Origin: Clostridiales bacterium
GTDB lineage: Bacteria; Bacillota; Peptococcia; Peptococcales; Peptococcaceae
Assembly: GCA_003343815.1 (NCBI GenBank)
Contig: QAKL01000101.1
Span: forward strand, 1-38,466
Direction of reading: 5' to 3'
DNA: 38,466 nucleotides
Shown: positions 1,035-33,878 of the stretch, one piece after another
How the letters are laid out: each line of letters starts with the position of its first letter
Numbering within the stretch: position 1 is the stretch's first letter
Made by a program: the position numbers and the translations under genes
The notes under the pieces: model-generated
The model's database searches: none
What the model was told of the DNA's origin: nothing
The model's input: the letters and a program-made list of their open reading frames with translations, nothing else

Positions 1035-1563
1035 GGGACAGCACGCTTTTTTGGGAGCGAGCAAGTATCATTGGATAAATTATGATGAGGGAAAAATCGC
1101 CGAGGCATATTCTAAATTTTTGGCGGCGCAAAAGGGGACGGAGCTGCATGAGTTTGCGGCACAGTGTATCCGTCTGGGACAAAAGCTGCCGAAATCGAAG
1201 AAGAGCTTGAATATGTATGTCAATGATGCGATCGGCTATAAGATGACGCCGGAGCAGACTTTGTTTTATTCAGAGAATTGTTTTGGGACGGCGGATGCGA
1301 TCGGGTTTCGTGATGGACTTTTGCGAATCCATGATCTGAAGACCGGGGCTACTCCGGCTAAGATGGAGCAGCTGGAAATTTATGCAGCGTTATTTTGTTT
1401 GGAATATCGGATGAAGCCGGGAGAGATCGCGATGGAGCTCCGATTATACCAAAGCGATGAGGTGATCGTCCATGAGCCGACAGTAGAAGATATTGCGCCG
1501 ATTATTGATAAGATTATCACTTTTGATAAAATTATTGCCAAAATCAAAGATCAGGAGGGGTGA
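1006..1563 (+). CDS. RecB/Cas4-like PD-(D/E)XK exonuclease (DUF2800-like, no Fe-S cysteines)
   Basis: ATG 1006 is preceded by AAAGGAGG (992-999). GTADAIGF...LRIHDLKTG provides D...D-x-K. EQLEIYAALF provides the QxxxY motif of RecB-family nucleases. It overlaps the upstream gene by 29 nt. Confidence 0.6.
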   Translation: MNFNKHLNLEGQHAFLGASKYHWINYDEGKIAEAYSKFLAAQKGTELHEFAAQCIRLGQKLPKSKKSLNMYVNDAIGYKMTPEQTLFYSENCFGTADAIGFRDGLLRIHDLKTGATPAKMEQLEIYAALFCLEYRMKPGEIAMELRLYQSDEVIVHEPTVEDIAPIIDKIITFDKIIAKIKDQEG

Positions 1564-1565
1564 AG

Positions 1566-4307
1566 ATGAATCCCATACTTGAAGATATGCTGATGCATTA
1601 CGGTACGCCGAGGCATTCGGGGAGATATCCATGGGGGTCGGGGGAGAATCCTTATCAGCACAGCGGTGATTTTTTGAGTCGTGTCGAGAGTTTGAAAAAA
1701 GAGGGTGTAAGCGAGACAAAGATTGCCGAGATGATGGGGATGTCGACGACAGAGCTGCGTGCGTATAAGTCAATCGCCAAAAACGAACGGCGTGCGGCGG
1801 AAGTAGCAAAGGCGAAAGCTCTGCGTGATGAGGGATATTCTCTGCAGGAAATCGCCGATAAGATGGGATATGCAAATGATTCGTCGATCCGCTCGCTTTT
1901 GAATGAAACCTCTGAGGCGCGAATGAATAAATCAGTCAAGACTGCAGAATTTTTGAAAAAACAGATCGATGAAAAAGGTATCGTCGATGTGGGCGCCGGG
2001 GTGGAAAAAGAACTGGGCATTTCTAAAGAAAAGCTGAATGAGGCGTTGGCGATATTGCGTGCCGATGGGTATGAGGTGTATGGCGGCGGTGTGCCGCAGG
2101 CGACAAATCCCGGAAAGCAAACTAATTTGCGTGTCGTGTGTCCGCCGGGGACGGAGCACAAAGATATTTACGATTATGAGAATATTCATCAAATCACAAA
2201 CTATACTTCACATGATAATGGCGAGACTTTTACGCCGTTTGTGTATCCGAAGAGTATGGACAGCAAAAGGTTGGCGATCCGTTATGCGGAGGATGGCGGG
2301 TTGGAAAAAGACGGTGTCTTGGAGATTCGCCGCGGAGTCGAGGATTTATCGCTTGGGGATGCGCACTATGCGCAGGTGCGTATCTTGGTCGATAATAAAA
2401 AGTATTTGAAAGGTATGGCAGTTTACAGCGATGATTTGCCGAATGGTGTGGATATTGTCTTTAACACCAATAAAACAAAAGATGTCGCAAAATTGGATGT
2501 GCTGAAGAATATCAAGGATGATCCGGATAATCCTTTTGGCTCATATATCAAGGCAAATGGGCAGAGCTATTATACTGATAAAAATGGCGAACAACAGCTT
2601 TCATTGATCAATAAGCGAGCGGAAGAGGGAGATTGGGGCGAGTGGGCGAAGAAGCTGCCTAGTCAATTCCTCTCTAAGCAGCCGAAAGCGCTGGCAGAGA
2701 AACAGTTAAAGTTAGCTGAAGCGGATAAGGTAGCAGAGTTTGAGGAGATCTGCTCGCTGACTAATCCGACGGTGAAAAAGGCGCTGCTGAAATCTTTTGC
2801 AGATGACTGCGATGCAGCAGCGGTGCATTTGCAGGCAGCGGCTTTGCCGAGACAGCGCTATCAGGTAATTATGCCGATTACTTCGATGAAAGATGACGAG
2901 GTGTATGCACCGAATTATAAAAATGGCGAAAAGGTGGCGCTGGTGAGGTTTCCGCATGGCGGTACTTTTGAGATCCCGGTGCTGACGGTAAATAATAAGC
3001 AGGCGGATGCGAAGAAGATTTTGGGTACGAATGCGCTTGACGCGGTAGGGATTAACTCGAAAGTGGCGGAGCGCTTGTCGGGTGCGGATTTTGACGGGGA
3101 TACGGTAATGGTGATTCCGTGCAATTCGTCGATGAGTAAGGTGAAAATTACTTCGACACCCCCTCTGGAGGGGTTAAAGGGATTTGACCCCAAGACGAAA
3201 TATGGTGCGGATGAGACACGAGTTGATTCCTCGGGAAAAGAGCATTATTATCGCGGTGGTAAAGAGTATCGGCAGATGAAAGCTACGCAAAAAGAGATGG
3301 GTGTGATTTCTAATCTGATTACCGATATGACTTTGAAAGGTGCGACACAGGATGAGCTGGCGAGAGCAGTACGCCACTCGATGGTGGTTATTGACGCGGA
3401 AAAGCATAAGCTGGATTACAAGCAGAGCGAGATCGATAACGATATTGCTTCATTGAAAAAGCGCTATCAAGGGCGGATCGGAGAGGACGGCAAGTACCAC
3501 GAGGGGGCATCAACGCTGATTTCGCGGGCGAAGAGCGAGGTTTCGGTGAACAAGCGGCAGGGCTCGCCGCAGATCGATCCCAAGACTGGGCGGCAGTATT
3601 GGAAAGACGCAGACAAGCTGGAATATACGGACTCTAGGGGGAGGGTGAAAAAACGCACCCAGCCCTCGACGGCGATGGCTGAGGCCGGGGACGCCCGTAC
3701 TTTGTCGTCTGGACACCCCGTCGAGGAAGTTTACGCTGATTATGCAAACAAGATGAAGTCGCTGGCGAATCAGTCGCGCAAAGAGATGTTGGCGACAGGT
3801 AAGATCGAGTACAGCGCGCAGGCGAAGAAGACTTATCGGGTGGAGTGTGATTCGCTGGATGCCAAGTTGAATGTGGCGTTAAAGAATGCGCCGCGTGAAC
3901 GGCAAGCACAGATCATGGCGAATAGTATTGTGAAAGCGAAGAAAGAAGCGAACCCTGATATGACGAAGGGCGAGGTTAAGAAGATCAGTCAGCAGGCATT
4001 GGCTCAGTCTAGGGTAAAAGTCGGCGCGCAGCGTACGCCGGTGAAGATCACGGATCGGGAATGGGAAGCGATTCAAGCTGGTGCGGTGAGCGAGAATAAA
4101 TTGACGCAGATTTTGAATAATGCAGATATGGATGAAGTGCGTAAGCGAGCGACTCCGCGGGCGACTAATTCACTTTCTGCGGGACAAATTGGTCGGATTA
4201 AGGCGCTGAAAGCGTCGGGTTACACGAATGCAGAGATCGCGGATGCTTTGGGTGTGTCGACATCGACGGTGAGTAAACATTTGACGAATGAGAGGAGTGG
4301 ACAGTGA
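1566..4307 (+). CDS. Single-chain two-barrel RNA polymerase homologue (YonO-like) with HTH modules
   Basis: ATG 1566 follows AGGAGGGG. NKKYLKGMAVYSDDLPNGVDIVFN (2397-2465) resembles the RpoB barrel (GNKGV...P..G.PVDIVLNP). VALVRFPHGG...SGADFDGDTVMVIP (2934-3119) carries the RpoC-type DFDGD metal site (3087-3101). HTH-like segments lie near nt 1700-1900 and 4183-4284. The N-terminus is HYGTPRHSGRYPWGSGENPYQ. Confidence 0.6.
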   Translation: MNPILEDMLMHYGTPRHSGRYPWGSGENPYQHSGDFLSRVESLKKEGVSETKIAEMMGMSTTELRAYKSIAKNERRAAEVAKAKALRDEGYSLQEIADKMGYANDSSIRSLLNETSEARMNKSVKTAEFLKKQIDEKGIVDVGAGVEKELGISKEKLNEALAILRADGYEVYGGGVPQATNPGKQTNLRVVCPPGTEHKDIYDYENIHQITNYTSHDNGETFTPFVYPKSMDSKRLAIRYAEDGGLEKDGVLEIRRGVEDLSLGDAHYAQVRILVDNKKYLKGMAVYSDDLPNGVDIVFNTNKTKDVAKLDVLKNIKDDPDNPFGSYIKANGQSYYTDKNGEQQLSLINKRAEEGDWGEWAKKLPSQFLSKQPKALAEKQLKLAEADKVAEFEEICSLTNPTVKKALLKSFADDCDAAAVHLQAAALPRQRYQVIMPITSMKDDEVYAPNYKNGEKVALVRFPHGGTFEIPVLTVNNKQADAKKILGTNALDAVGINSKVAERLSGADFDGDTVMVIPCNSSMSKVKITSTPPLEGLKGFDPKTKYGADETRVDSSGKEHYYRGGKEYRQMKATQKEMGVISNLITDMTLKGATQDELARAVRHSMVVIDAEKHKLDYKQSEIDNDIASLKKRYQGRIGEDGKYHEGASTLISRAKSEVSVNKRQGSPQIDPKTGRQYWKDADKLEYTDSRGRVKKRTQPSTAMAEAGDARTLSSGHPVEEVYADYANKMKSLANQSRKEMLATGKIEYSAQAKKTYRVECDSLDAKLNVALKNAPRERQAQIMANSIVKAKKEANPDMTKGEVKKISQQALAQSRVKVGAQRTPVKITDREWEAIQAGAVSENKLTQILNNADMDEVRKRATPRATNSLSAGQIGRIKALKASGYTNAEIADALGVSTSTVSKHLTNERSGQ

Positions 4308-4933: not shown

Positions 4934-5275
4934 ATGGCGCAAAGAAAAAATGCGAGTAATGTAAGTAATGCAAGTAAGCAAAAGTTTCGTCCGGCATGTA
5001 CTCCGGAGGCAAGAGAGAATCAGCTGATATCCTTGGCGGTGGATCTGGCGGAAAAGCAGCTCAGAGAAGGGACGGCATCGTCACAGGTAATCACTCACTA
5101 TCTAAAGCTGGGCTCGACGAAAGAAAAAATCGAGAAAGAGATTTTGGAGAAACAGAAAGATCTGATCGAGGCTAAAACCGAAAATTTGAAAGCGGCGCAA
5201 AGAATCGAGGAACTGTACAATAAGGCGCTGGATGCTATGAAAAGCTACAGTGGACACAGTGACGAGGATGAGTGA
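4934..5275 (+). CDS. Small basic coiled-coil phage protein, possibly small-terminase-like
   Basis: ATG 4934 lies 9 nt after AAAGGAGG (4917-4924). The segment REGTASSQVITHYLKLGSTKEKIEKE is remembered from packaging-region proteins. No clear HTH is present. The assignment is tentative. Confidence 0.3.
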   Translation: MAQRKNASNVSNASKQKFRPACTPEARENQLISLAVDLAEKQLREGTASSQVITHYLKLGSTKEKIEKEILEKQKDLIEAKTENLKAAQRIEELYNKALDAMKSYSGHSDEDE

Positions 5276-5769
5276 GCGGAGGGATATATTTGTGGCAGTA
5301 TAATTATGGGTACGGCGGTGAGCTCTATCACTATGGTGTCAAAGGTATGCGCTGGGGCGTAAGGAGATACCAAAACAAAGACGGGAGTTTAACACCAGAG
5401 GGAAAAAGTCGATATGCTATTGCGAAGCGCGCGAAAAATGGTATAATAGAAAGTAAAAAAGGATTTAGTATTCATCGAGATAAAATTGAAAAGTATATGT
5501 TAAAAGAAGGAGCTAAGCATTCACAAGATTTCTTTAATGTGGGGTACACGAAGAATGACGCAGTTAGACTTTATAAAGATATCGAACGACAGTATGATAT
5601 TAAGAAAGCAACTGGTTTTAGACAAAATGCTAATGGTTCAATTGGATACAGTATCTATATGGATTTAGGGATTATTAAGAAAAGAACATTCTGCACAGCG
5701 TGGATTATCGACGAGGATGGAGCTACTCCAAGATTAACAAGCGCATATAGGAGGGATAAGCGTGTATGA
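5272..5769 (+). CDS. HYGVKGMRWG-leader protein with DUF6883-like putative toxin C-terminus
   Basis: The start is GTG 5272, or TTG 5290 after GGAGG. The N-terminus is ELYHYGVKGMRWGVRRYQNKDGSLTPEG. The C-terminus KIEKYMLKEG..FFNVGYTKND...GYSIYMDLG...TAWIIDEDGATPRLTSAYR matches my recollection of DUF6883 (FF.LGY...Y.I.G.L...VWI...G..PR.VTAYP). Confidence 0.5.
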   Translation: MSGGIYLWQYNYGYGGELYHYGVKGMRWGVRRYQNKDGSLTPEGKSRYAIAKRAKNGIIESKKGFSIHRDKIEKYMLKEGAKHSQDFFNVGYTKNDAVRLYKDIERQYDIKKATGFRQNANGSIGYSIYMDLGIIKKRTFCTAWIIDEDGATPRLTSAYRRDKRV

Positions 5770-5947
5770 GTATTTAGACAAAGTATATGTAAAATCTAAA
5801 AACGTAAGTGGAATAATCGTGGATATTTCAGAAACTAAACCGACAATGTATATAGTGGAAAGTGATATTTATGATGCTAAAAATGATGAGTGGCCGCTAT
5901 ATGATTGCTACGCTGATGATTTAAAATTTATAGCTCATGATGAGTAG
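5762..5947 (+). CDS. Small acidic protein, candidate immunity/antitoxin (DUF4926-like size and position)
   Basis: GTG 5762 overlaps the upstream ORF by 8 nt. SD AGGAGGG (5749-5755) lies inside the upstream gene, which suggests translational coupling. The product is 61 aa. Confidence 0.4.
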   Translation: MYEYLDKVYVKSKNVSGIIVDISETKPTMYIVESDIYDAKNDEWPLYDCYADDLKFIAHDE

Positions 5948-5993
5948 TGCGATAAAAAGCTAATAACAAAATAAGCTACAGTGGAGACATATT

Positions 5994-6239
5994 ATGACCA
6001 TAGGTAAATTGAAGCAGTTAGTTGTAGATGAAGCTAATGACTTTTATTTCTCATATAAGAATATGAGAGCGGGCATAGAAAATACTATCACAAATGGGCG
6101 AATAATCTATAATGTTTGGTGGGGAGATAAGGAAAAGCAATATTCGAGTTTCTATGATGTTGTTACCGATAAGTTTTATGACGGAAAATCTATTATGGAA
6201 TTATTGATGAATAGAGATATTGTCATAGATTTTGTGTAA
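5994..6239 (+). CDS. Small hypothetical protein, second immunity-like ORF in the cassette
   Basis: The ORF encodes 81 aa, is AT-rich like 5762..5947, and is followed directly by a terminator. Confidence 0.4.
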   Translation: MTIGKLKQLVVDEANDFYFSYKNMRAGIENTITNGRIIYNVWWGDKEKQYSSFYDVVTDKFYDGKSIMELLMNRDIVIDFV

Positions 6240-6257
6240 AGAGCCTAATGATTTTGG

Positions 6258-6282
6258 GAGCCGCGTTTGCGGTTCTTTTTTT
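6258..6282 (+). terminator. Rho-independent terminator closing the toxin/immunity cassette
   Basis: GAGCCGC-GTTT-GCGGTTC forms a 7-bp stem with one G-U pair. It is followed by TTTTTTT (6276-6282). Confidence 0.7.
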
Positions 6283-6302
6283 ATGCTTAAGTGAGGTAAA
6301 AG

Positions 6303-6713
6303 ATGCGGTGCTATAGCGATTTAGTGAAGCTGGAAACATTTCAGGAGAGATTTGAATATTTAAGTTTGAACGGGGCGGTGGGGGTGGAGACGTTTGGATT
6401 TGAGAGATATTTAAATCAAATGTTTTACCGCTCGAGAGAATGGAAGCGGGTGCGGAGAGAGGTCATCATCCGCGATATGGGCTGTGATTTAGGAATAAGG
6501 AGTCGCGAAATCGTAGGAAAGGTGATCATCCACCATATGAATCCGGCGACGGTAGAGGATGTGACGAATAATATCGAGCGGCTGCTTGATCCGGAGTATT
6601 TAGTATGTGTGAGTATGGAGACGCATAATGCGCTGCACTATGGTGATGAAGAATTAATAAAAGCAAACGAACCTGTGGTGCGCAAGAAAAACGATACCTG
6701 CCCATGGCGGTGA
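6303..6713 (+). CDS. HNH homing-type endonuclease (packaging-associated)
   Basis: REWKRVRREVIIRDMGCDLG...IIHHMNP...ETHNALHYG is a typical phage HNH motif set. Confidence 0.8.
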   Translation: MRCYSDLVKLETFQERFEYLSLNGAVGVETFGFERYLNQMFYRSREWKRVRREVIIRDMGCDLGIRSREIVGKVIIHHMNPATVEDVTNNIERLLDPEYLVCVSMETHNALHYGDEELIKANEPVVRKKNDTCPWR

Positions 6714-10366: not shown

Positions 10367-10498
10367 ATGGATATCGCGAAGATGAAGATGTATTATCAAA
10401 AGGAGCTGTGGAAGAAAGCCATGGTCGATAATCTTTTAAAATTAGGGAAAATCACCGAGGAAGAATATAGAGAAATCGTAGGTGATAGCGAAATATGA
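10367..10498 (+). CDS. XkdX-like small phage protein
   Basis: This 43-aa ORF is not in the track: MDIAKMKMYYQKELWKKAMVDNLLKLGKITEEEYREIVGDSEI. The pattern YY...LW......V..G.IT.EEY.EI.G is characteristic of XkdX. It shares an ATGA overlap with the next gene. Confidence 0.5.
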   Translation: MDIAKMKMYYQKELWKKAMVDNLLKLGKITEEEYREIVGDSEI

Positions 10499-11619
10499 GT
10501 GAAAAATATTTAGGTGCGGTAGTATCGCCAGCGGATAATCGCGACTATCAGGCGAAAGATTATATTTCTGCCGGGGTGCGACCGGAAGAATATTATCCGA
10601 AAGTATTATGCCCAGTGCATCATCAAGAGGCGGGTGACTGCACGGCATGGGCGCTCGCAACAGCAAAATTTTATCATGAATTAAGAGAACGCAAGAGCCA
10701 GTATGAATTCGCCCCGATATTTTCGTATTTCGACCGTACGGACGATGATTACACAGGTGAGGGGCGCTATATGCGTAAAGTGCTGGATAACGCACGGAAA
10801 AACGGTATTTGCTATGCAAAAGATTTGCCCAAAGGTGTGCCGCTTTCGGCTGACTATCCTAACGAGGAGATCAGTGCGAAGTTGGCGCCGTTATTTCCCA
10901 AAGCAAAGGAAAATTGCATAGCCGGGTATGCCTATACGAGCAAAACAGACGAGATTGCCGACTGTGTCTTTCAGCATGGAGCGGCGACTATCACGATTGA
11001 TGTACGAGTGAGTTTTGACGCGTTTGTCTTAAAGAATGAGAATAACTGGGTGCTACCTATGCCGAAAGACGGCGAGCGAGTGCGCGGCTGTCATGAAGTG
11101 TGCGCTGTCGGTTTCACTAAGGATGGGATCATTATCCAAAATAGTTGGGGCACGCCGTGGGGGTATAACGGATTCGCTGTCTTACCGTGGGACTATCCTA
11201 TATTAGAGGGCTGGACTTTGGTCGACGAAGTGAAGCAGTGGGATATCGTCGAACTAATCGTAGGCGAGAATAAGGCGTTTGTTAACGATAAAGAAATAGC
11301 AATAGACGCTCCGGCAATGATTAAAAACGGTAGAACATTCGTACCATTAAGATTTATCGGAGAGGCATTAGGCGCGAAAGTATTCTGGGAAAACGGGACA
11401 AGAACTATCGCAATCAAAGACAAGGATAACGTCATCACCATGCAGATAGGCGAGCGAATCGGGTATGTGAATAATTACGCGCATGTGCTGGACGAAGCTC
11501 CGTTTATTAAAAATGACCGCACTTTTGTGCCGTTAAGGTTTATCGGCGAGGCGCTGGGTGCTGATGTGGAATGGATCGCAAGTGAAAGAAAGATCGTGGT
11601 GAGGAGAGTGCGCAAATGA
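10495..11619 (+). CDS. Papain-family (C1) cysteine peptidase with 2x copper-amine-oxidase-N-like wall-binding repeats; candidate endolysin
   Basis: QEAGDCTAWA supplies the Q/C, GCHEVCAVGF the H, and IIQNSWGTPWGYNGF the NSWG motif. The C-terminus has two repeats, NGRTFVPLRFIGEALGAKV and NDRTFVPLRFIGEALGADV. No signal peptide is present. It follows the XkdX-like gene. Confidence 0.65.
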   Translation: MSEKYLGAVVSPADNRDYQAKDYISAGVRPEEYYPKVLCPVHHQEAGDCTAWALATAKFYHELRERKSQYEFAPIFSYFDRTDDDYTGEGRYMRKVLDNARKNGICYAKDLPKGVPLSADYPNEEISAKLAPLFPKAKENCIAGYAYTSKTDEIADCVFQHGAATITIDVRVSFDAFVLKNENNWVLPMPKDGERVRGCHEVCAVGFTKDGIIIQNSWGTPWGYNGFAVLPWDYPILEGWTLVDEVKQWDIVELIVGENKAFVNDKEIAIDAPAMIKNGRTFVPLRFIGEALGAKVFWENGTRTIAIKDKDNVITMQIGERIGYVNNYAHVLDEAPFIKNDRTFVPLRFIGEALGADVEWIASERKIVVRRVRK

Positions 11620-11972
11620 TCGAAAATGACAGTATATTAAATAGTATAAAGAAGCTTTGCAATATCGCCTATGATGATACACATTTCGATCGCGACATAA
11701 TCTTTCATATCAATGCGGCGCTGGGGGTACTGGCGCAAATCGGCGTCGTTGCAAAAGAGGGGATGATCATAAGCGATCAAAAATCAAAATGGACTGATCT
11801 CACAGAGGATAAGGTCATTTTGGGATTAGCGGTCGAGTATATCCAGCTCAAATGTGTGATCGTCTTTGACCCGCCGAGTGTGAGCGCGGTATTGGACGCT
11901 TATAAGGAGCGGATAAAGGAGCTAGAGTGGAGACTGCAAGAGCAGGCAGAGGAAAGTAACACGATAAATTAA
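11616..11972 (+). CDS. gp6-like head-tail connector protein (putative)
   Basis: ILNSIKKLCNIAYDDTHFDRDIIFHINAALGVLAQIGV...VFDPPSVSAVLDAYKERIKELEWRL resembles the connector/adaptor family seen in Firmicutes phages (from memory). Confidence 0.4.
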   Translation: MIENDSILNSIKKLCNIAYDDTHFDRDIIFHINAALGVLAQIGVVAKEGMIISDQKSKWTDLTEDKVILGLAVEYIQLKCVIVFDPPSVSAVLDAYKERIKELEWRLQEQAEESNTIN

Positions 11973-12886
11973 TTTAGATATTGAAGTGCTAAAGCAATTA
12001 ATGATAGACAGCGATTAAAAAAATAATCATAATATCGAATATCGTTAATATTTATTTTATCGGTTTCATGATGTCTGATACGGAAACTATTTCCAATGAA
12101 AGTTAGCGCTTTAAATTCTTCTGTGAATAGAATTTTATAGTCATCCTGTCCGCAAGACATATTTTCGATTATTTTATTTACGGATTGTTTTTTATCTAAA
12201 TCAGTGTAATATGTCTTTAATCGCTCTAATACATCCCATATTTTCTCAACTGCGTCTTTGTGGGACTGAAGATTTGGTTGCATGTGTTTTTCAATAGCTA
12301 TGTTGAATAATTCTTGTAACTCAGGTTCCGGGATTTGAGCACTCAACGAGATTATATCAGGGCTAAGCACTTCGGATAAAGCTAACTGTTCTATGAGACC
12401 GCTGTCATTGAGATTAAAGGGTATATTGTATTTTTGAAATAATGTATTAATTGCTGAACGAAAATCGAGTTTTTCTTTTGAAGATAACTCTTCATATTGG
12501 AGCTCAATTATGTCGAATAAAAATGGTGTAAAACATGCAGATAAGATCTCATAGTCGAGTGACGAATACATTTTAAATGATTTTAGATCTACAGCTGGAA
12601 CCTGAAGATATTCATTTAAGCGTTCTATAGCACATTCCAAAGCATCTGTGTATACTGTCCAATCGCTATAACGATCTGGCTGATAGCATATGGGTTCTCT
12701 AAAGTGAGATATTATTTTGCAAATGCGGTTTTTGACACTCGAATCAACAGAATAGCTAATATTGTCAGTGGGCTGACCTTGTCCATAGCTTATTAAATCT
12801 TTATAGCGTTCGGTAAAAAGGTTATCCGGGAAAAGCGATTGTATAGCGTTTACACATTTTACAGCGTTTTCAGAATTCTTGTTCAT
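11969..12886 (-). CDS. AT-rich opposite-strand hypothetical protein, candidate prophage defence/Abi-like moron
   Basis: This 305-aa ORF has SD AGGAGG upstream of its ATG at 12886. Its stop codon overlaps the stop of the convergent + gene. It is mostly helical. The C-terminus IGNSFRIRHHETD...YFFNRC is vaguely AbiJ/HEPN-like, but there is no canonical Rx4-6H. Confidence 0.4.
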   Translation of the reverse strand: MNKNSENAVKCVNAIQSLFPDNLFTERYKDLISYGQGQPTDNISYSVDSSVKNRICKIISHFREPICYQPDRYSDWTVYTDALECAIERLNEYLQVPAVDLKSFKMYSSLDYEILSACFTPFLFDIIELQYEELSSKEKLDFRSAINTLFQKYNIPFNLNDSGLIEQLALSEVLSPDIISLSAQIPEPELQELFNIAIEKHMQPNLQSHKDAVEKIWDVLERLKTYYTDLDKKQSVNKIIENMSCGQDDYKILFTEEFKALTFIGNSFRIRHHETDKININDIRYYDYFFNRCLSLIALALQYLN

Positions 12887-12981: not shown

Positions 12982-13347
12982 GTGGATGAATTGTATCACT
13001 ACGGCGTCAAGGGTATGAAATGGGGTATCAGGCGCTATCAAAACTCGGACGGGAGCTATACGAAAGCCGGAAAGAAACGACGGCGGGAGGAACATCCCGA
13101 CTATACAAATGCTCATACCAAGAAACATGTCCGCGAGATGAGTAATGAGGAGTTAAAGAGCCGCAATAATCGATTACAGATGGAAAAAACATATGAGGGA
13201 CTAACTAAAGATCAGCATATCATCGGGCTGGGGATGAAATATGTAGGTACGGCTACAGCGATAACAGGCTCGGCATTAGCTCTGTATAGTAATGCAGATC
13301 GTATCATATCCATAGGGAAAAAGGCCGCGAAGCGAACGCTAAGATAA
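12982..13347 (+). CDS. HYGVKGMKWG-leader small protein with basic middle and C-terminal hydrophobic helix
   Basis: GTG 12982 lies 9 nt after AAGGAGG. The sequence is MDELYHYGVKGMKWGIRRYQNSDGSYTKAGKKRR...MSNEELKSRNNRLQMEKTY...GLGMKYVGTATAITGSALAL. Confidence 0.55.
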   Translation: MDELYHYGVKGMKWGIRRYQNSDGSYTKAGKKRRREEHPDYTNAHTKKHVREMSNEELKSRNNRLQMEKTYEGLTKDQHIIGLGMKYVGTATAITGSALALYSNADRIISIGKKAAKRTLR

Positions 13348-13359
13348 AAGGAGATAAAT

Positions 13360-15102
13360 ATGGCACTGTCGAATACTGCTGTACCGAAATATTACGGCAT
13401 GTTTCGAGATGCCGTAATGCGTGGAGAAATTGCGATCAATCGAGAAATCGAGATGGAGATGAATCGAATCGATAATTTGATCCGTGACAAAGACATTTAT
13501 TGTGACAATACGGCGGTGGAGGGGTTTATCCGCTACTGCGAAAACGAGATGACACTGACTGACGGGGCGGATTTAACGCTGCTGGATACTTTTAAACTGT
13601 GGGCGGAGGAGATATTCGGCTGGTATTATTTCGTGGAAAAGCAGGTGTGGGAGCCGTACGAGGACGGCGGCGGCCGCTATGTGCGCAAGTGGCAGAAAAA
13701 GCGTCTGGTCAATAAGCAGTATCTCATCATCGCCAGAGGGGCGGCGAAGTCGATGTATGGCGCGTGCTTACAAAGCTATTTTTTGAATGTCGATACGACA
13801 ACGACTCATCAAATAACTACGGCGCCGACGATGAAGCAGGCGGAGGAGGTATTGGCTCCGATAAGAACGGCGATCACCAGAGCAAGAGGTCCGCTCTTTC
13901 AGTTTTTAACTGAAGGGAGCTTGCAGAATACGACCGGGAGCAAAGCAAAACGCATGAAGCTCTCACCGACCAAAAAAGGAATTGAGAATTTCCTGACAGG
14001 TTCGCTTTTAGAAATCCGTCCGATGAGTATCCATAAGCTGCAGGGACTGCAAATCAAGGTGGCGACGGTGGATGAATGGCTCTCGGGGGATATCCGAGAG
14101 GATGTCATCGGGGCTATTGAGCAGGGTGCGAGCAAAGTGGATGATTATTTAATCGTGGCAATTTCCTCAGAGGGTACGGTGCGTAACGGCGCAGGGGATA
14201 CAATCAAAATGGAATTGGCGGATATCCTCAAAGGCGAGTATGTCAATCCGCATGTGTCTATCTGGTGGTATAAGCTGGATAATATCGAGGAGGTCAACAA
14301 CCCGGCGATGTGGGTCAAGGCTCAGCCTAATCTGGGTAAGACAGTGAGTTATGAAACCTATCAGCTGGAAGTGGAAAGAGCGGAGAAAGCACCGGCAGCG
14401 CGAAATGATATTTTGGCTAAAAGATTCGGTATCCCGATGGAGGGATATACTTACTACTTTACTTATGAGGAGACGATACCGCATAAGCGAAAATCGTATC
14501 ACGGTATGGCGTGTGCGCTGGGCGGAGACTTTTCCCGAGGGGATGATTTCTGTGCATTGACCTTTTTATTTCCCTTACGAGACGGAGCGTTTGGCGTGAA
14601 AACGAGGAACTATATTTCGGCGCTCACTTATCAGAAACTCGCTCCGGCGATGCGGATGAAATATGACGAATTTATCGAAGAGGGGACGCTAATCGTAATG
14701 GAGGGGACAGTCCTCGATATGGATGACATCTATGACGAACTGGCTGGATATATCGATGAGATGGAATATGATGTGCGGTGCTTTGGCTATGATCCATACA
14801 ATGCAAATAAGTTTGTCGCTCAATTTGAGGTTGATAACGGACCGTTTGGGATTGTAAAAGTACCGCAGGGTGCGAAGACGGAATCAGTGCCGTTAGGAGA
14901 ACTAAAAAGTTTATCCGAAGAAAGAATGCTGTTATTTGACGAGGAAATGATGAGCTTTACGATGGGGAACTGTATTACTTTAGAGGATACGAATGGCAAC
15001 CGCAAACTGTTGAAAAAGCGGCATGATGCAAAGATAGACGCGGTGGCAGCGATGATGGATGCGTATATCGCGTATAAGGAAAACAAAGATGTGTTTGAAT
15101 AA
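13360..15102 (+). CDS. terL: Terminase large subunit (Terminase_1 type)
   Basis: The product is 580 aa. LIIARGAAKS is Walker-A-like and VATVDEW is Walker-B-like. The C-terminal nuclease region is GGDFSRGDDF...QGAKTESVPLGELK...KKRHDAKIDAVAAMMDA. Confidence 0.85.
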   Translation: MALSNTAVPKYYGMFRDAVMRGEIAINREIEMEMNRIDNLIRDKDIYCDNTAVEGFIRYCENEMTLTDGADLTLLDTFKLWAEEIFGWYYFVEKQVWEPYEDGGGRYVRKWQKKRLVNKQYLIIARGAAKSMYGACLQSYFLNVDTTTTHQITTAPTMKQAEEVLAPIRTAITRARGPLFQFLTEGSLQNTTGSKAKRMKLSPTKKGIENFLTGSLLEIRPMSIHKLQGLQIKVATVDEWLSGDIREDVIGAIEQGASKVDDYLIVAISSEGTVRNGAGDTIKMELADILKGEYVNPHVSIWWYKLDNIEEVNNPAMWVKAQPNLGKTVSYETYQLEVERAEKAPAARNDILAKRFGIPMEGYTYYFTYEETIPHKRKSYHGMACALGGDFSRGDDFCALTFLFPLRDGAFGVKTRNYISALTYQKLAPAMRMKYDEFIEEGTLIVMEGTVLDMDDIYDELAGYIDEMEYDVRCFGYDPYNANKFVAQFEVDNGPFGIVKVPQGAKTESVPLGELKSLSEERMLLFDEEMMSFTMGNCITLEDTNGNRKLLKKRHDAKIDAVAAMMDAYIAYKENKDVFE

Positions 15103-15142: not shown

Positions 15143-16306
15143 TCAGTCATCACCACTAGGCAATGCTTTTAAATAAAGGGCATCGCCGCTCATCAAGATG
15201 TCTACAGGCTCATTATAGATAGCGTTAATGTGGTCAATTTTTTCAGCGAATATTTGAGATTTAGTGTCTTGGCAGCTGGCAAGCGATTTGGCTGCTTTAG
15301 AAAAGTGGGCTTTGTCGGTGCTGCGTAAAGCATAGGCACCGTCAGATAAATGCTCATGAATAGGGGTTTTACGCAAAAGAGGAGTTTTTTCAAAAACTAA
15401 GGAGGCGGCGGTTCCGGCTTTAGCGACGGTCTTAATGGCGTGATGCTCCAAGGCTCGCGCAGAAAGCGCATCTAAGTGTGCGCAGGATTTCTGGTAGTAA
15501 GCGTCATATTTAGTGGATACGTCGGATATTTGCTTAGAAACAGAGGAGAGGTAACCTGAACTGCTGTAGTTTTCGGTAAAGATGACTTCGGCATAGGAAG
15601 CGAGGGCGTAAATGGAAACACAAAGGCGGTAAATCTGAAGTGGTTTGCGCAAGGAATTGGCGGCTTTGTCGATATCGCCTTTCGTAACAATGCGCTCTTT
15701 ATCGGTAAAAACTTTGTCGATTTGCTTTTGATAAAATTCTATATTCTGATAAGCTTCATTTTTAGCGTCTTGGAGCTTGACAAAAACACCGGTTTTATAA
15801 AGCTCGTTTTGGCTACTGTATTTGTAGTTGCTCAAAGCATCGTGTAAATACAGAATAGTGCCGCGTATTTTGGATTGCTTATCTGTTTCGAGGAAATATA
15901 AAAGCTGCTCTTGCATAGCGGTGATTTGGTTAAGTTGGGAAGTAACGGCGGATATAGCAGCAGAGGCGCAAAGTGTAGCCGGATTAACCGCCGAAATTTT
16001 AACCGGCTGAAAGGAAGCCTTGCCGACAAGCTTGCCGTTTTTGAAAATCATATCACGGTATCCTTGTCCGTTCAAAGATTTGGTGGATAGGCGAATTGAT
16101 TTGCCGACATCGTCTACGGCGCGGTAAAGTAATTTGTCTTTTTTGAAAAAGTTTGGTATTTCCGAAACGCCCATGCCTAAGGATGATAACTGAGCGAAAG
16201 GAATTTTCTCATATTTAGAAAGCTCGACGGTAGAATCAAGCGGAATAAGCTCAAGCTCCAAAGGAGCGAGAAAGTCATAATTTTGGGCAGCTGAAGTAGT
16301 ATCCAT
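15143..16306 (-). CDS. Opposite-strand hypothetical protein inserted between terL and portal
   Basis: This 387-aa ORF has SD AGGAG (16316-16320, minus) 9 nt from its ATG at 16306. The first ~120 aa look beta-rich, followed by a long helical region. No TM segment and no family motif were recognised. Confidence 0.5.
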   Translation of the reverse strand: MDTTSAAQNYDFLAPLELELIPLDSTVELSKYEKIPFAQLSSLGMGVSEIPNFFKKDKLLYRAVDDVGKSIRLSTKSLNGQGYRDMIFKNGKLVGKASFQPVKISAVNPATLCASAAISAVTSQLNQITAMQEQLLYFLETDKQSKIRGTILYLHDALSNYKYSSQNELYKTGVFVKLQDAKNEAYQNIEFYQKQIDKVFTDKERIVTKGDIDKAANSLRKPLQIYRLCVSIYALASYAEVIFTENYSSSGYLSSVSKQISDVSTKYDAYYQKSCAHLDALSARALEHHAIKTVAKAGTAASLVFEKTPLLRKTPIHEHLSDGAYALRSTDKAHFSKAAKSLASCQDTKSQIFAEKIDHINAIYNEPVDILMSGDALYLKALPSGDD

Positions 16307-16405: not shown

Positions 16406-16783
16406 ATGTATTATTACAATGATAAAAATAATGAATTATATCACTACGGTGTCAAAGGGATGCGTTGGGGCGTAAGAAAACATAGGGACTCTGCTTCCTC
16501 ACAAACACGCGCTCAAAGAAAAAGCGAAAAACAGGCGTATAAACAAAAATTAAAAGCTGATGTCCGTATGAATAAAAAGGGCATGATCGCGAAAACACAG
16601 GATTTTGACGTAACGACGGGACGAGCTGTCAAAGGCAGTGAGCGCTACTATAATACAATGACCGGTGAAGAATACAGCAAGGCGTATATTAAAAAGGTGA
16701 ATAAAAAAACAGCAGTATCTCAATTAAGCAAAGTCGGTATTGCAACCGGGGCATATGTAACCGCACGCTATTTAGCACATTAG
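16406..16783 (+). CDS. HYGVKGMRWG-leader small protein
   Basis: MYYYNDKNNELYHYGVKGMRWGVRKH is followed by a Lys-rich middle and a C-terminal hydrophobic segment, VGIATGAYVTARYL. Confidence 0.55.
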   Translation: MYYYNDKNNELYHYGVKGMRWGVRKHRDSASSQTRAQRKSEKQAYKQKLKADVRMNKKGMIAKTQDFDVTTGRAVKGSERYYNTMTGEEYSKAYIKKVNKKTAVSQLSKVGIATGAYVTARYLAH

Positions 16784-16801: not shown

Positions 16802-18046
16802 ATGGATTTGATGAACAGGGCAAAAAATGCCTGGAATGTATTTATGAATAAGGATCCCACCCAATCATGGCATGATTATGGGATGAGCTACAGCTATCGA
16901 CCGGATAGGCCGAGGTTTACCGGCGGTAATGCGCGGACGATGGCGACACCTATTTATAATCGGATTGCAATGGACGCAGCGGCTGTGAATATCCGCCATG
17001 TGCTGCTGGATGAAAACGGGCGGTATAAAGAGGACGTGGAGTCGGGGCTGAATAACTGTCTGAAGCTGGAGGCAAATATTGATCAAAGTGCGCGCGCCTT
17101 TATCCAAGATGTGGTGATGAGTCTTTTGGATGAGGGATGTGTGGCGATCGTGCCGATAGATACTGATCGTAATCGGCTGACAGGTGAGGTGAAAGAGATA
17201 TTCACGCTGCGGACGGGAAAGATCGTCCAGTGGTATCCGGAACACATCAAGGTGAGCGTCTATAATGACCGCACGGGGCAAAGGGAAGAAGTCATCGTCT
17301 CGAAACGAAGTGCGGCAGTCATCGAAAATCCGCTCTATGCAGTGATCAACGAGAAAAACTCGACTATGCAGAGATTAATCAGAAAATTAAGTCTATTAGA
17401 CGCGGTGGACGAGGAAAACAGTGCGGGGAAATTTAATATGATCATCCAACTGCCGTATGCAGTGAAAACAGAGACGAGACGCAATCAAGCGGAGCGCAGG
17501 CGCAAGGATATGGAGGAACAGCTCAAGCAGTCGAAATACGGGATCGCTTATGTAGACGCGACAGAGAAGATAACGCAGCTGAATCGACCGCTCGAAAACT
17601 CGCTGAATGCTCAGGTAGAGTATCTGACAAATAAGCTTTACGGCGAGCTGGGGATGACGCTAAGCATTCTCGACGGAACGGCGGATGAAAAGACAATGCT
17701 GAATTATTATTCGCGGACGATCGAGCCGATTGTCAGTGAGATCGCAATCGGGATGAAAAGAGTGTTTCTAACTCAAGCGCAGCGTGAGAATCATGAGTCG
17801 ATCGAGGTTTATCGTGATCCGTTTAAACTGGTGCCGGTGAATAATATTGCCGAGATCGCCGATAAGTTTACGAGAAATGAGATTATGACTTCGAATGAGA
17901 TCCGTCAGGTCATCGGGATGAAGCCGTCGGATGATCCGAAAGCGGATGAGCTCCGCAACAGCAATATCAGCGCGTCTAAGGAAGAAATGCAGTATATGTA
18001 TGACGATGACGGCTATGAGGAGGGAGAAAATCAAAATGGATGGTAA
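16802..18046 (+). CDS. Portal protein
   Basis: The 414-aa product lies between terL and the protease-capsid gene and has an acidic C-terminal tail. The call rests on position and size. The portal family was not identified. Confidence 0.65.
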   Translation: MDLMNRAKNAWNVFMNKDPTQSWHDYGMSYSYRPDRPRFTGGNARTMATPIYNRIAMDAAAVNIRHVLLDENGRYKEDVESGLNNCLKLEANIDQSARAFIQDVVMSLLDEGCVAIVPIDTDRNRLTGEVKEIFTLRTGKIVQWYPEHIKVSVYNDRTGQREEVIVSKRSAAVIENPLYAVINEKNSTMQRLIRKLSLLDAVDEENSAGKFNMIIQLPYAVKTETRRNQAERRRKDMEEQLKQSKYGIAYVDATEKITQLNRPLENSLNAQVEYLTNKLYGELGMTLSILDGTADEKTMLNYYSRTIEPIVSEIAIGMKRVFLTQAQRENHESIEVYRDPFKLVPVNNIAEIADKFTRNEIMTSNEIRQVIGMKPSDDPKADELRNSNISASKEEMQYMYDDDGYEEGENQNGW

Positions 18047-32679: not shown

Positions 32680-32696
32680 TAATTATCATATTGGGG

Positions 32697-32720
32697 CTCT
32701 TTCTTTGTTTAAGAAAGGAG
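32697..32720 (+). promoter_or_regulatory. Hairpin occluding the int Shine-Dalgarno
   Basis: CTCTTTCTT (32697-32705) pairs with AAGAAAGGAG (32711-32720) with one bulged G. The loop is tgttt. The 3' arm contains the SD AAAGGAG of int. Confidence 0.4.
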
Positions 32721-32726
32721 AACACT

Positions 32727-33878
32727 ATGTCTGAGAAGAGAAAGGATAATCGAGGACGAATTTTACGGACGGGAGAGAGCCAGAGAAAAGACGGAACGTA
32801 TCAATATCGCTATGCTGATATTTTTGGTACCCGGCGCTATATTTATGATGCCAATTTAAACAAGCTCAGAGAAAAAGAGAAAGATGTTCAAAAACAGTTG
32901 GATCAAGGTCTTGATTATGCGAATGGAAAGATGACTGTAGTTGGACTATATGAGCAATATGTGAGTACAAAAAGAAATACGCGCGAGAATACAAAGAAAT
33001 CGTATGCTTATTTTGCCAAAATGTTGCATAATGACACTTTTGGTAGAAAAGAAATATTAAAAGTAAAAACTTTAGATGTAAAGAAGTGGCTTATAAAATT
33101 GCACGATAGTGGATTAAGCTATGGTACTTTAAATACATTAAAAGTTGTTGTAGGCGGAGCGTTTAAAATGGCGTGTGAAGAAAATATTATTTTGAAGAAT
33201 CCTTGTGCTTTTCCGCTGAGCAGTATAATAAGCAATGATGCGAATAAAAAAGAAGTGTTGTCTTTAGAACAGCAAAAAGAATTTCTGTCTTTTGTTAGAG
33301 ATGATGCATGGGGCAGTAAGTGTTATGATATAATAGTTGTATTGTTAAACACAGGTATGAGAATAGGCGAGCTTAGCGGATTGACTATTGATGATGTAGA
33401 TTTTGAAAGACGCAGGATAAAAATAGATCACCAATTACAATATTATGATAAAAAGGGGTATACGGTTGAAAAAGCAAAATCAAAAAGCGGTAATCGGGTG
33501 ATTCCAATGAGCGACGATGTATATGATTCATTGAAGCGATTATTGAAAAAACGCAATCAAATTGAGCGAGAGTTTGATGATTATGTTTTCTTAAATCGCA
33601 ACGGACGTCCGATTAGGAGTACAACATTTTCAAATTCTTTGAGGCAAATAAGAAAAAGATATAATGAAATCCATCAAGATAATCCATTGCCGAATATTAC
33701 TCCGCATAGTTTTAGGCATATGTTTTGCTCAAACATGGTTAATGCAAAAATGAATGCAAAAATGCTGCAATACATTATGGGTCATGCTGATATTTCGGTG
33801 ACTTTAAATGTGTATTCTCATATTGATTACGATACTGTTGAGAAAAGTATGCTTGATATTTTAAACGTAAAGAATTAG
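32727..33878 (+). CDS. int: Tyrosine integrase, Tn916 Int-like
   Basis: The N-terminus MSEKRKDNRGRILRTGESQRKDGTYQYRY is nearly identical in pattern to Int-Tn916. The catalytic region shows TGMRIGEL, HSFRHMF, GHADISVTLNVYSH. ATG 32727 follows AAAGGAG. The gene is AT-rich. Confidence 0.9.
   Translation: MSEKRKDNRGRILRTGESQRKDGTYQYRYADIFGTRRYIYDANLNKLREKEKDVQKQLDQGLDYANGKMTVVGLYEQYVSTKRNTRENTKKSYAYFAKMLHNDTFGRKEILKVKTLDVKKWLIKLHDSGLSYGTLNTLKVVVGGAFKMACEENIILKNPCAFPLSSIISNDANKKEVLSLEQQKEFLSFVRDDAWGSKCYDIIVVLLNTGMRIGELSGLTIDDVDFERRRIKIDHQLQYYDKKGYTVEKAKSKSGNRVIPMSDDVYDSLKRLLKKRNQIEREFDDYVFLNRNGRPIRSTTFSNSLRQIRKRYNEIHQDNPLPNITPHSFRHMFCSNMVNAKMNAKMLQYIMGHADISVTLNVYSHIDYDTVEKSMLDILNVKN

Follow-up and report, generated by a model that had tools for sequence, protein, structure and literature searches.

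Contig QAKL01000101.1 of a Clostridiales bacterium (assembly GCA_003343815.1; 38,466 nt), which we refer to as the window and on which all positions are given, carries a unit of three open reading frames (ORFs) on the forward strand between positions 5276 and 6300. The first ORF encodes a predicted ribonuclease (RNase) toxin headed by a short DUF7211 leader; the second, which overlaps it, encodes a 61-amino acid (aa) candidate immunity protein; and the third encodes an 81-aa accessory protein. The window is a prophage of the supergroup that contains Lactococcus phage 1706, Faecalibacterium phage FP_oengus and Rhodococcus phage ReqiPepy6, and the locus has a phage polymorphic toxin architecture in which the DUF7211 leader stands in place of MuF. 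We consider the toxin-immunity core to be, probably, a phage-borne polymorphic toxin-immunity module. The strongest evidence, drawn from DNA alignments of natural alleles, is cassette exchange behind the leader.

Toxin Cassettes Are Exchanged behind a Conserved Leader

As the original prediction had it, the unit lies between the gene at 4934 and an HNH endonuclease gene. The left flank is a conserved 113-aa gene of the ReqiPepy6 gp008/1706 gp04 type (4934-5275, +; phrog_4259, PHROG E = 1e-45) and the right flank is the HNH gene (6303-6713, +; phrog_4321, PHROG E = 4.5e-60). The gp008-type and HNH genes are also neighbors in ReqiPepy6 (gp008, gp009) and in 1706 (gp04, gp05). We compared 84 loci that contain both flanking genes (80 IMG/VR relatives, four other loci, the window itself; individual loci are designated by L and a number). 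Since the two genes are adjacent, within 60 nt of each other and with no cassette between them, in 73 of the 84 loci, the whole unit at 5276-6300 is, by this comparison, an insertion.

A close relative (L031/L032) shares the DNA of the window without a difference across the upstream gene and the leader, as far as position 5405. The next ~600 nt are unrelated and code for an Ntox50 domain (PF15542, E = 2.5e-22), with an acidic 66-aa ORF overlapping it by 4 nt. From window position 5746 the two sequences match again: L031 has kept the Shine-Dalgarno sequence and, as an orphan, the 61-aa gene (98% identical to that of the window), behind which come the 81-aa ORF, terminator and HNH gene. The breakpoints of this pairwise DNA alignment divide the toxin gene into a constant leader segment (5290-5405, +; aa 1-39), nucleotide-identical to the Ntox50 allele of L031, and a variable cassette (5406-5745, +), which holds a promoter-like site and the toxin domain.

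Other relatives carry the module elsewhere or in pieces. At the window's own site, L162 has just 13 codons left from the beginning of the leader, and between these and the terminator lies unrelated AT-rich DNA. At a second site, flanked by the connector gene and the leader gene that precedes the terminase gene (the equivalent of the window gene at 12982), L031 has another leader-DUF6883 toxin, 70% identical to that of the window, with a 62-aa partner. L009 likewise has a leader-DUF6883 toxin and partner at this second site, just 5′ of the second leader gene, and L006 has a decayed 93-aa remnant there with no partner.

Polymorphic toxin loci are defined by a constant head and sharply delimited variable toxin domains with private ORFs behind them, together with orphaned immunity genes and signs of decay (Zhang et al., 2012; PMC3482391). 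At this locus, DUF6883 in the window and Ntox50 in L031 follow a nucleotide-identical leader, an immunity gene lies downstream and has been left as an orphan by displacement in L031, and the toxin domain is shared with proteins of VG15, Phage_Mu_F and Phage_min_cap2 architecture. A leader joined to a swapped C-terminal toxin and immunity cassette had been proposed from the window alone. Profile matches agree with that proposal, and the natural alleles support it more strongly: the swap for Ntox50 and a 66-aa ORF at the same site, with its orphan, the remnant in L162 and the empty junctions in most relatives.

We also identified three independent toxin-null alleles in the window's lineage: a C5476T transition that creates a stop at R63 (L014/L018/L029), a 2-bp deletion at 5427-5428 (L013) and a 1-bp insertion at 5454 (L027). 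The 61-aa gene is intact in each. An apparent loss of the immunity gene in L012 proved to be an assembly gap of Ns. Nonsense and frameshift alleles, together with the remnants in L006 and L162, are what would be expected if the unit were a decaying, non-functional remnant in which chance small ORFs sit beside a pseudogenizing toxin fragment. We regard this explanation as very improbable, as the intact three-gene arrangement is 98%-100% identical across about 20 contigs from different samples, and both the coupling signals and the linkage of toxin and immunity genes across the family are conserved.

The Toxin Gene Encodes a Predicted BECR-Fold RNase

The ORFs on which the original prediction was built (5272-5769, 165 aa; 5762-5947; 5994-6239) are all present; what changes is the likely start of the first. 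A TTG at 5290 is called as the start in more than 20 public metagenome contigs, where the same three-ORF arrangement occurs at 98%-100% identity, and a GGAGGG Shine-Dalgarno sequence (5278-5283, +, by sequence reading) precedes it. For these reasons, the real start is most likely 5290 rather than 5272, giving a toxin gene of 159 codons (5290-5769, +). From Pfam, AlphaFold2 and Foldseek, its product consists of a DUF7211 leader, a linker and a C-terminal DUF6883/BECR-Tox3 domain.

DUF7211 spans aa 11-28 of the toxin (17-34 of the 165-aa form; nt 5320-5373), with E = 6e-10 and 38.8 bits against a cutoff of 27. DUF6883 spans aa 60-154 (66-160 of the 165-aa form; nt 5467-5751). This second match upholds the earlier recognition of a DUF6883 C terminus on the leader ORF, and it is marginal, scoring 27.1-27.2 bits against a cutoff of 27.0 with E about 5e-6 (5.4e-6 at 27.1 bits). 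No Phage_Mu_F or SPP1 gp7-type domain was found by Pfam in the window toxin, where DUF7211 and DUF6883 are the only matches. Homologs that are 35%-45% identical to the toxin score higher, up to 36 bits, and bear a precomputed PF21814 label. In a 26-sequence alignment, every sequence has H77, Y86 and W138, and conservation reaches at least 90% at K76, D90, T136 and R154.

The AlphaFold2 model of the toxin has a predicted local distance difference test (pLDDT) score of 82 overall and >90 for residues 50-155; leader residues 1-25 are disordered. Three helices (63-70, 78-83, 91-101) pack against a four-stranded sheet (108-112, 118-126, 132-140, 148-154). The best Foldseek match in the PDB is 6cp9_A, the tRNase-type CdiA-CT toxin of a contact-dependent growth inhibition (CDI) system of Klebsiella pneumoniae 342 (probability 0.98, TM-score 0.51, E = 0.12), and the best matches in a viral structure library are annotated as minor capsid proteins (E = 3e-5 to 7e-5). 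At the sequence level, neither the leader nor the toxin nor the immunity profile matched anything in the PDB beyond chance. The toxin is basic, with an isoelectric point (pI) of 9.8.

DUF6883, also named BECR-Tox3, is described as a colicin-like BECR RNase that has a downstream DUF4926 gene and is often fused to Phage_Mu_F (bioRxiv 10.64898/2026.08.28.747851); the pairing of DUF6883 with DUF4926, which the original prediction had put forward, is stated there. Profile and model together suggest that the C-terminal domain is a BECR-fold RNase and would be toxic.

A 61-aa Acidic ORF Is a Candidate Immunity Gene

The 61-aa ORF (5762-5947, +) starts at a GTG (5762) and overlaps the toxin gene, which ends with a TGA at 5767-5769, by 8 nt. 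Its Shine-Dalgarno sequence, AGGAGGG (5749-5755, +, by sequence reading), lies within the 3′ end of the toxin gene and is kept in L031. The overlap, the placement of this signal and the acidic nature of the product (pI 4.3, net charge -8) are all as first described. The protein is 34%-44% identical to small ORFs found behind DUF6883 genes elsewhere. In 29 of 29 IMG/VR loci, an ORF of 52-81 aa lies directly 3′ of the DUF6883 gene, starting between -17 and +4 nt from the toxin stop, and matches the 61-aa family profile (E = 1e-10 to 5e-31). At 28 of these 29 loci, the DUF6883 and immunity module has VG15, Phage_Mu_F or Phage_min_cap2 as its fusion partner, all of which are head-associated carriers.

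The proposal that the 61-aa ORF belongs to DUF4926 did not hold, as the Pfam profile has no match (E <= 1) in it or in six homologs. Nor does a Pfam scan of the same seven proteins find a helix-turn-helix (HTH), ribbon-helix-helix or AbrB match. Weak matches to the MSSS SH3 domain occur in five of the seven family members (best E = 5.7e-4), and a single-sequence AlphaFold2 model of the 61-aa protein is all-beta with low confidence (pLDDT 60), so the product is probably a small all-beta, SH3-like protein. Because the family is linked to DUF6883 genes at all 29 loci and does not match DUF4926, we treat the 61-aa protein as the candidate cognate immunity protein by genetic linkage and overlap, not as a demonstrated DUF4926 member; it would neutralize the toxin.

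A Promoter-like Site Lies within the Toxin Gene

The region's best sigma-70-like match (5420-5447, +) lies inside the toxin ORF, just past the left breakpoint and 349 nt ahead of the toxin stop. It consists of TTGCGA, a 16-nt spacer and TATAAT, with an extended -10 TG, and agrees with consensus at 10 of 12 positions. One such site occurs 110-134 nt into the ORF in each of the five leader-toxin genes examined, the Ntox50 allele included (11 of 12), and the total for 179 other leader ORFs is only three. We compared 14 distinct DUF6883 genes, which represent four kinds of carrier and range from 43% to 60% in G+C (GC) content, and ten of them have a site with at least 10 of 12 matches at -334 to -406 from the toxin stop. 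The ~65 kb of flanking coding-strand sequence at these 14 loci contains only three.

The element appears in two different peptide contexts, and its -10 hexamer repeatedly uses ATA, a minor Ile codon. In L119, a perfect TTGACA-16 nt-TGgTATAAT lies at about 4068-4095, at the domain boundary of a stand-alone DUF6883 gene, and near matches are visible in three of the four remaining DUF6883 genes (L115, L121, L142). An observation from a VG15-type fusion in a 60% GC phage (L256) is that its extended -10 site, at about 2439-2466, forms a conspicuous AT-rich island. Separately, the 2-bp deletion at 5427-5428 described above shortens the promoter-like spacer from 16 to 14 nt. On sequence resemblance and recurrence, we lean slightly toward the site working as a promoter. 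Neither Jamet et al. (2017; PMC5576092) nor bioRxiv 10.64898/2026.08.28.747851 mentions a promoter, and as far as we could find, the feature is apparently undescribed.

The unit ends at an intrinsic terminator (6256-6284, +), a hairpin stem at 6256-6277 followed by a run of Ts, which is conserved in L031 and also in L162, where the cassette is replaced. GC content drops from 44%-50% to 32%-36% between about 5400 and 6250. Both the terminator and this AT-rich turn had been noted before and stand. The promoter-like site and the terminator delimit a self-contained unit that coincides with the AT-rich stretch.

Within this unit is the 81-aa accessory ORF (5994-6239, +). Its PHROG matches are weak and are to families of unknown function (phrog_15041, E = 3.8e-5), and it has no relatives in the phage collection or IMG/VR. 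In L031, it stays in place and is 90% identical behind a different toxin. The earlier reading of this ORF as immunity-like is hard to reconcile with such constancy, and we rejected it as a second immunity gene because it does not change with the toxin ahead of it and lacks relatives in those two collections. By comparison of the two alleles, it belongs to the AT-rich unit and is not tied to toxin type.

The unit is a moron, AT-rich and equipped with a promoter-like site and a terminator, and as such would also fit a conventional type II toxin-antitoxin (TA) or abortive-infection module, in which the toxin acts only in the producing cell and the leader has no role in trafficking. Such a module would serve to stabilize the prophage or to protect the lysogen. 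BECR/RelE-like RNases are common as TA toxins, RelE- and HigB-like structures are among the weaker fold matches of our model, and a neighboring hotspot of the prophage holds a defense candidate, PDC-S32. Several features make this explanation unlikely. The toxin domain is C-terminal to a DUF7211 leader or, at nearly all of the IMG/VR loci, to a virion-associated carrier, and the toxin genes lie in the packaging and head gene region on the late strand. The small protein has no match to a DNA-binding domain, and PADLOC finds no match for the toxin-immunity unit. Moreover, a promoter located 3′ of the toxin start would cause lysogens to make the immunity protein but no full-length toxin, contrary to what an addiction module does.

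The DUF7211 Leader Heads Diverse Phage Proteins

The DUF7211 motif is HYG-x-KGM-x-WG, and a local hidden Markov model (HMM) of it matches the toxin with E = 1e-22. The domain is significant in three window ORFs, which start at 5290, 12982 and 16406. The second is a 121-aa gene directly 5′ of the large terminase gene (12982-13347, +) and the third is a 125-aa gene directly 5′ of the portal gene (16406-16783, +). The leader is conserved at the nucleotide level at all three sites of this one genome, providing homology through which cassettes could be shuffled. Comparison of the pre-portal leader protein with its counterpart in L031 (11281-11838) revealed that the first ~25 residues are nearly the same, whereas the C termini differ (125 versus 185 aa). 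Exchange behind the leader therefore goes beyond toxin genes. The N terminus of the polymerase ORF at 1560-4307, MLMHYGTPRHSGRYPWGSG, resembles the HYG leader by eye; we rejected it as a further carrier of the leader, as the local HMM gives E = 7 and DUF7211 is absent from its Pfam matches.

DUF7211 is a very large family, with 24,948 representative clusters at E <= 1e-3, including many long proteins with two to five copies. Leader genes stand alone on some IMG/VR contigs and form tandem arrays of two to four on others. We scanned 88 IMG/VR DUF7211 representatives together with the window toxin, and most have no recognizable C-terminal domain. The exceptions are one Ntox50 protein, a second DUF6883 protein besides that of the window, two with the papain-fold deamidase Gln_amidase and two with GNAT. 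Two database annotations connect the leader to virions: 1706 gp07, annotated as a structural protein, has two DUF7211 motifs, and ReqiPoco6 gp020, annotated as a virion structural protein, has the motif at its start. An exact search for the leader DNA in IMG/VR gave no match, a protein search with the leader alone in a word-indexed database returned only fragments of <90 aa and is uninformative on architectures, and our literature search found no paper that mentions DUF7211 or its motif.

Since the same toxin and immunity module elsewhere sits on VG15, Phage_Mu_F and Phage_min_cap2, the simplest reading, by analogy, is that the leader replaces MuF-type carriers and does the same job, which would be incorporation into the virion.

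The family includes other architectures. A set of proteins of 780-1,570 aa (P0129-P0139) has three to five spaced DUF7211 motifs, some together with GNAT or papain-fold deamidase domains. Such multi-motif proteins may be true polyproteins, in which the motif could be where processing or docking takes place, or they may come from phages with a recoded stop codon, where gene calling has joined separate genes. In actinophage relatives, the motif is internal, as in ReqiPepy6 gp013 (L004, 7487-9082) and gene 13 of Gordonia phage Fazel. The domain ahead of the internal motif has two H-x-T motifs and the look of a 2H phosphoesterase/LigT protein; the Fazel gene is annotated as an RNA ligase.

The enzymatic cargo of leader paralogs (GNAT, papain-fold deamidase and the 2H-phosphoesterase-like domain of ReqiPepy6 gp013) fits a different explanation, in which the RNase is a non-lethal phage effector for RNA processing or host takeover, which might cut host tRNA or mRNA or act against a defense system, and the small ORF is a chaperone or timer. 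Roles in the lysis-lysogeny decision were considered by Jamet et al. (2017; PMC5576092), and an embedded host-type promoter would turn off an injected enzyme soon after DNA entry. We nonetheless give this explanation a low probability. Replacement by the unrelated RNase toxin Ntox50, private small ORFs and an orphan immunity gene are the signature of a diversifying conflict, and toxin-null alleles circulate. An effector with a timer overlaps with the polymorphic toxin explanation that we prefer.

The Prophage and Its Other Variable Sites

The supergroup's signature gene, an RNA-dependent RNA polymerase-like (YonO/crAss-type) RNA polymerase of 915 aa with a C-terminal HTH, is present in the window (1560-4307; phrog_4291). 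The large-terminase ORF begins at 13360 and the portal ORF at 16802; these identities were taken from Pfam matches on the equivalent genes of close relatives. An integrase-sized ORF (32691-33878) is followed, beyond 34200, by ORFs that look non-phage, as judged without a profile search. Megablast of the region against GenBank phages gave no match.

Cargo also varies at other positions. The junction of the gp008-like and HNH genes is a general cargo hotspot: at the window's toxin site, seven loci (L164, L167, L177, L208, L213, L216, L221) have a calcineurin-like metallophosphoesterase of ~319 aa, and L176 has two larger ORFs in this gap. The hotspot flanked by the connector gene and the pre-terminase leader gene is occupied in the window by an AT-rich (33% GC) 305-aa ORF (11969-12886, -) that matches the PADLOC candidate defense protein PDC-S32 (E = 1.3e-65) and, weakly, AbiJ_NTD4. 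This is the position where L031 and L009 carry a leader-DUF6883 toxin and immunity gene. Cargo varies at a third spot as well, which is bounded by the terminase gene and the pre-portal leader gene: the window has a 387-aa ORF with no family match there (15143-16306, -) and L031 an EcsC-domain protein (10481-11176).

A Model for Toxin Delivery and Lysogen Immunity

We propose that during lytic growth, late transcription would yield full-length toxin together with the immunity protein, made by translational coupling, and that the 61-aa protein would neutralize the toxin in the producing cell. The leader, in place of the MuF, VG15 or minor-capsid-protein-2 carriers, would direct the toxin into the virion. 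The toxin could then enter the next cell with the DNA, where its RNase would act if the cognate immunity protein were lacking. Taken by itself, virion delivery of the toxin, for which we argue from analogy, may occur, and we hold it nearly as plausible as its contrary.

With the unit formed by the predicted promoter (5420-5447) and terminator (6256-6284), expression of the immunity gene and the 81-aa ORF would not require late transcription. Through this host-type promoter, lysogens could be protected, as could newly infected cells soon after DNA entry. The conserved leader sequence may serve as a recombination handle for the exchange of toxin and immunity cassettes.

Several points weigh against this interpretation. 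Toxicity, RNase activity and packaging are predicted here from sequence and models. The DUF6883 match of the toxin sits right at the Pfam threshold, the Foldseek E-values against the PDB are non-significant (0.12), and the 61-aa ORF has neither a DUF4926 match nor a confident structural model (its single-sequence model has a pLDDT of 60). That the toxin is dispensable follows from the three independent null alleles. For a virion role of the leader, the arguments are analogy and the two database annotations, and as most DUF7211 proteins have no recognizable toxin domain, the leader is not toxin-specific. For the promoter-like site, four of the 14 DUF6883 genes do not have a match of at least 10 of 12, and the promoter-bearing loci are homologous, so the nominal binomial P (5e-20) is inflated.

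A more speculative and rather doubtful extension of the model is that DUF7211 is a general leader for loading cargo into virions or ejecting it, and that the host-type promoter embedded in the cassettes drives the immunity gene in lysogens and directly upon DNA entry, giving a self-limiting pulse of toxin. If this were true, a large group of siphophages of Firmicutes and Actinobacteria would package and inject interchangeable effectors, RNase toxins included.

Phage-delivered polymorphic toxins have been proposed since 2012. The locus offers a compact system for testing them, with a 159-aa toxin, a 61-aa candidate immunity protein and a set of natural alleles (the Ntox50 swap, the orphan, the nulls and the remnants). 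A conserved promoter-like element that moves with the cassette across four carriers is a lead on lysogen immunity. The locus also suggests a testable role for DUF7211, a very large and uncharacterized family of phage motifs, as a recombination handle and possibly in virion loading. Should such loading be confirmed, one could also use the leader to bring designed cargo into phage particles.

Comparison with Known Systems

The locus most resembles the MuF toxins (PMC3482391; PMC5576092). As with these, it lies in the packaging and head region of a prophage of gut-type Firmicutes and has a small ORF directly downstream; a conserved N terminus precedes variable C-terminal toxins that are common to other families (Ntox50, Gln_amidase, BECR RNases), and the same DUF6883 and immunity module is found on MuF, VG15 and minor-capsid-2 carriers. 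It differs in that a ~40-aa DUF7211 leader, predicted to be disordered, replaces the MuF-type domain. Unlike MuF, this leader also heads non-toxin paralogs near the terminase and portal genes and can recur within one polypeptide. No MuF gene was found in the examined regions of 1706/FP_oengus/ReqiPepy6-type phages.

With BECR-Tox3/DUF6883 (bioRxiv 10.64898/2026.08.28.747851), the toxin shares the DUF6883 match and a conserved small downstream gene, and its model suggests a colicin-like BECR fold. In contrast to the preprint, Pfam DUF4926 does not match the downstream protein of this locus or of the other phage loci examined, and the preprint mentions neither the DUF7211 architecture nor an embedded promoter.

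Short conserved terminal peptides that direct unrelated cargo are familiar from the capsid-targeting sequences of T4 internal proteins and the cargo-loading peptides of encapsulins. The DUF7211 leader is analogous, as a short terminal peptide on unrelated cargo near head genes, and shares no sequence similarity with them.

CDI (CdiA-CT/CdiI) and Rhs systems likewise combine a constant region, a sharply bounded variable C terminus and a cognate immunity gene. Recombination displaces the toxin and leaves a downstream orphan immunity gene, as in L031, and the best structural match of our toxin is a CdiA-CT toxin. In CDI and Rhs proteins, the variable region is demarcated by VENN or PxxxxDPxGL motifs, whereas here the demarcation is the DUF7211 leader. 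The toxin is also tiny (159 aa), and delivery would be by the phage particle rather than by type V or type VI secretion.

Finally, nuclease colicin operons have a constitutive promoter for the immunity gene within the colicin gene. The promoter-like element described here is similarly located in the toxin coding sequence, 5′ of the immunity gene, and could serve when the toxin promoter is silent. Unlike that of the colicins, it is a predicted promoter, is placed where the toxin domain begins and accompanies the cassette from carrier to carrier.

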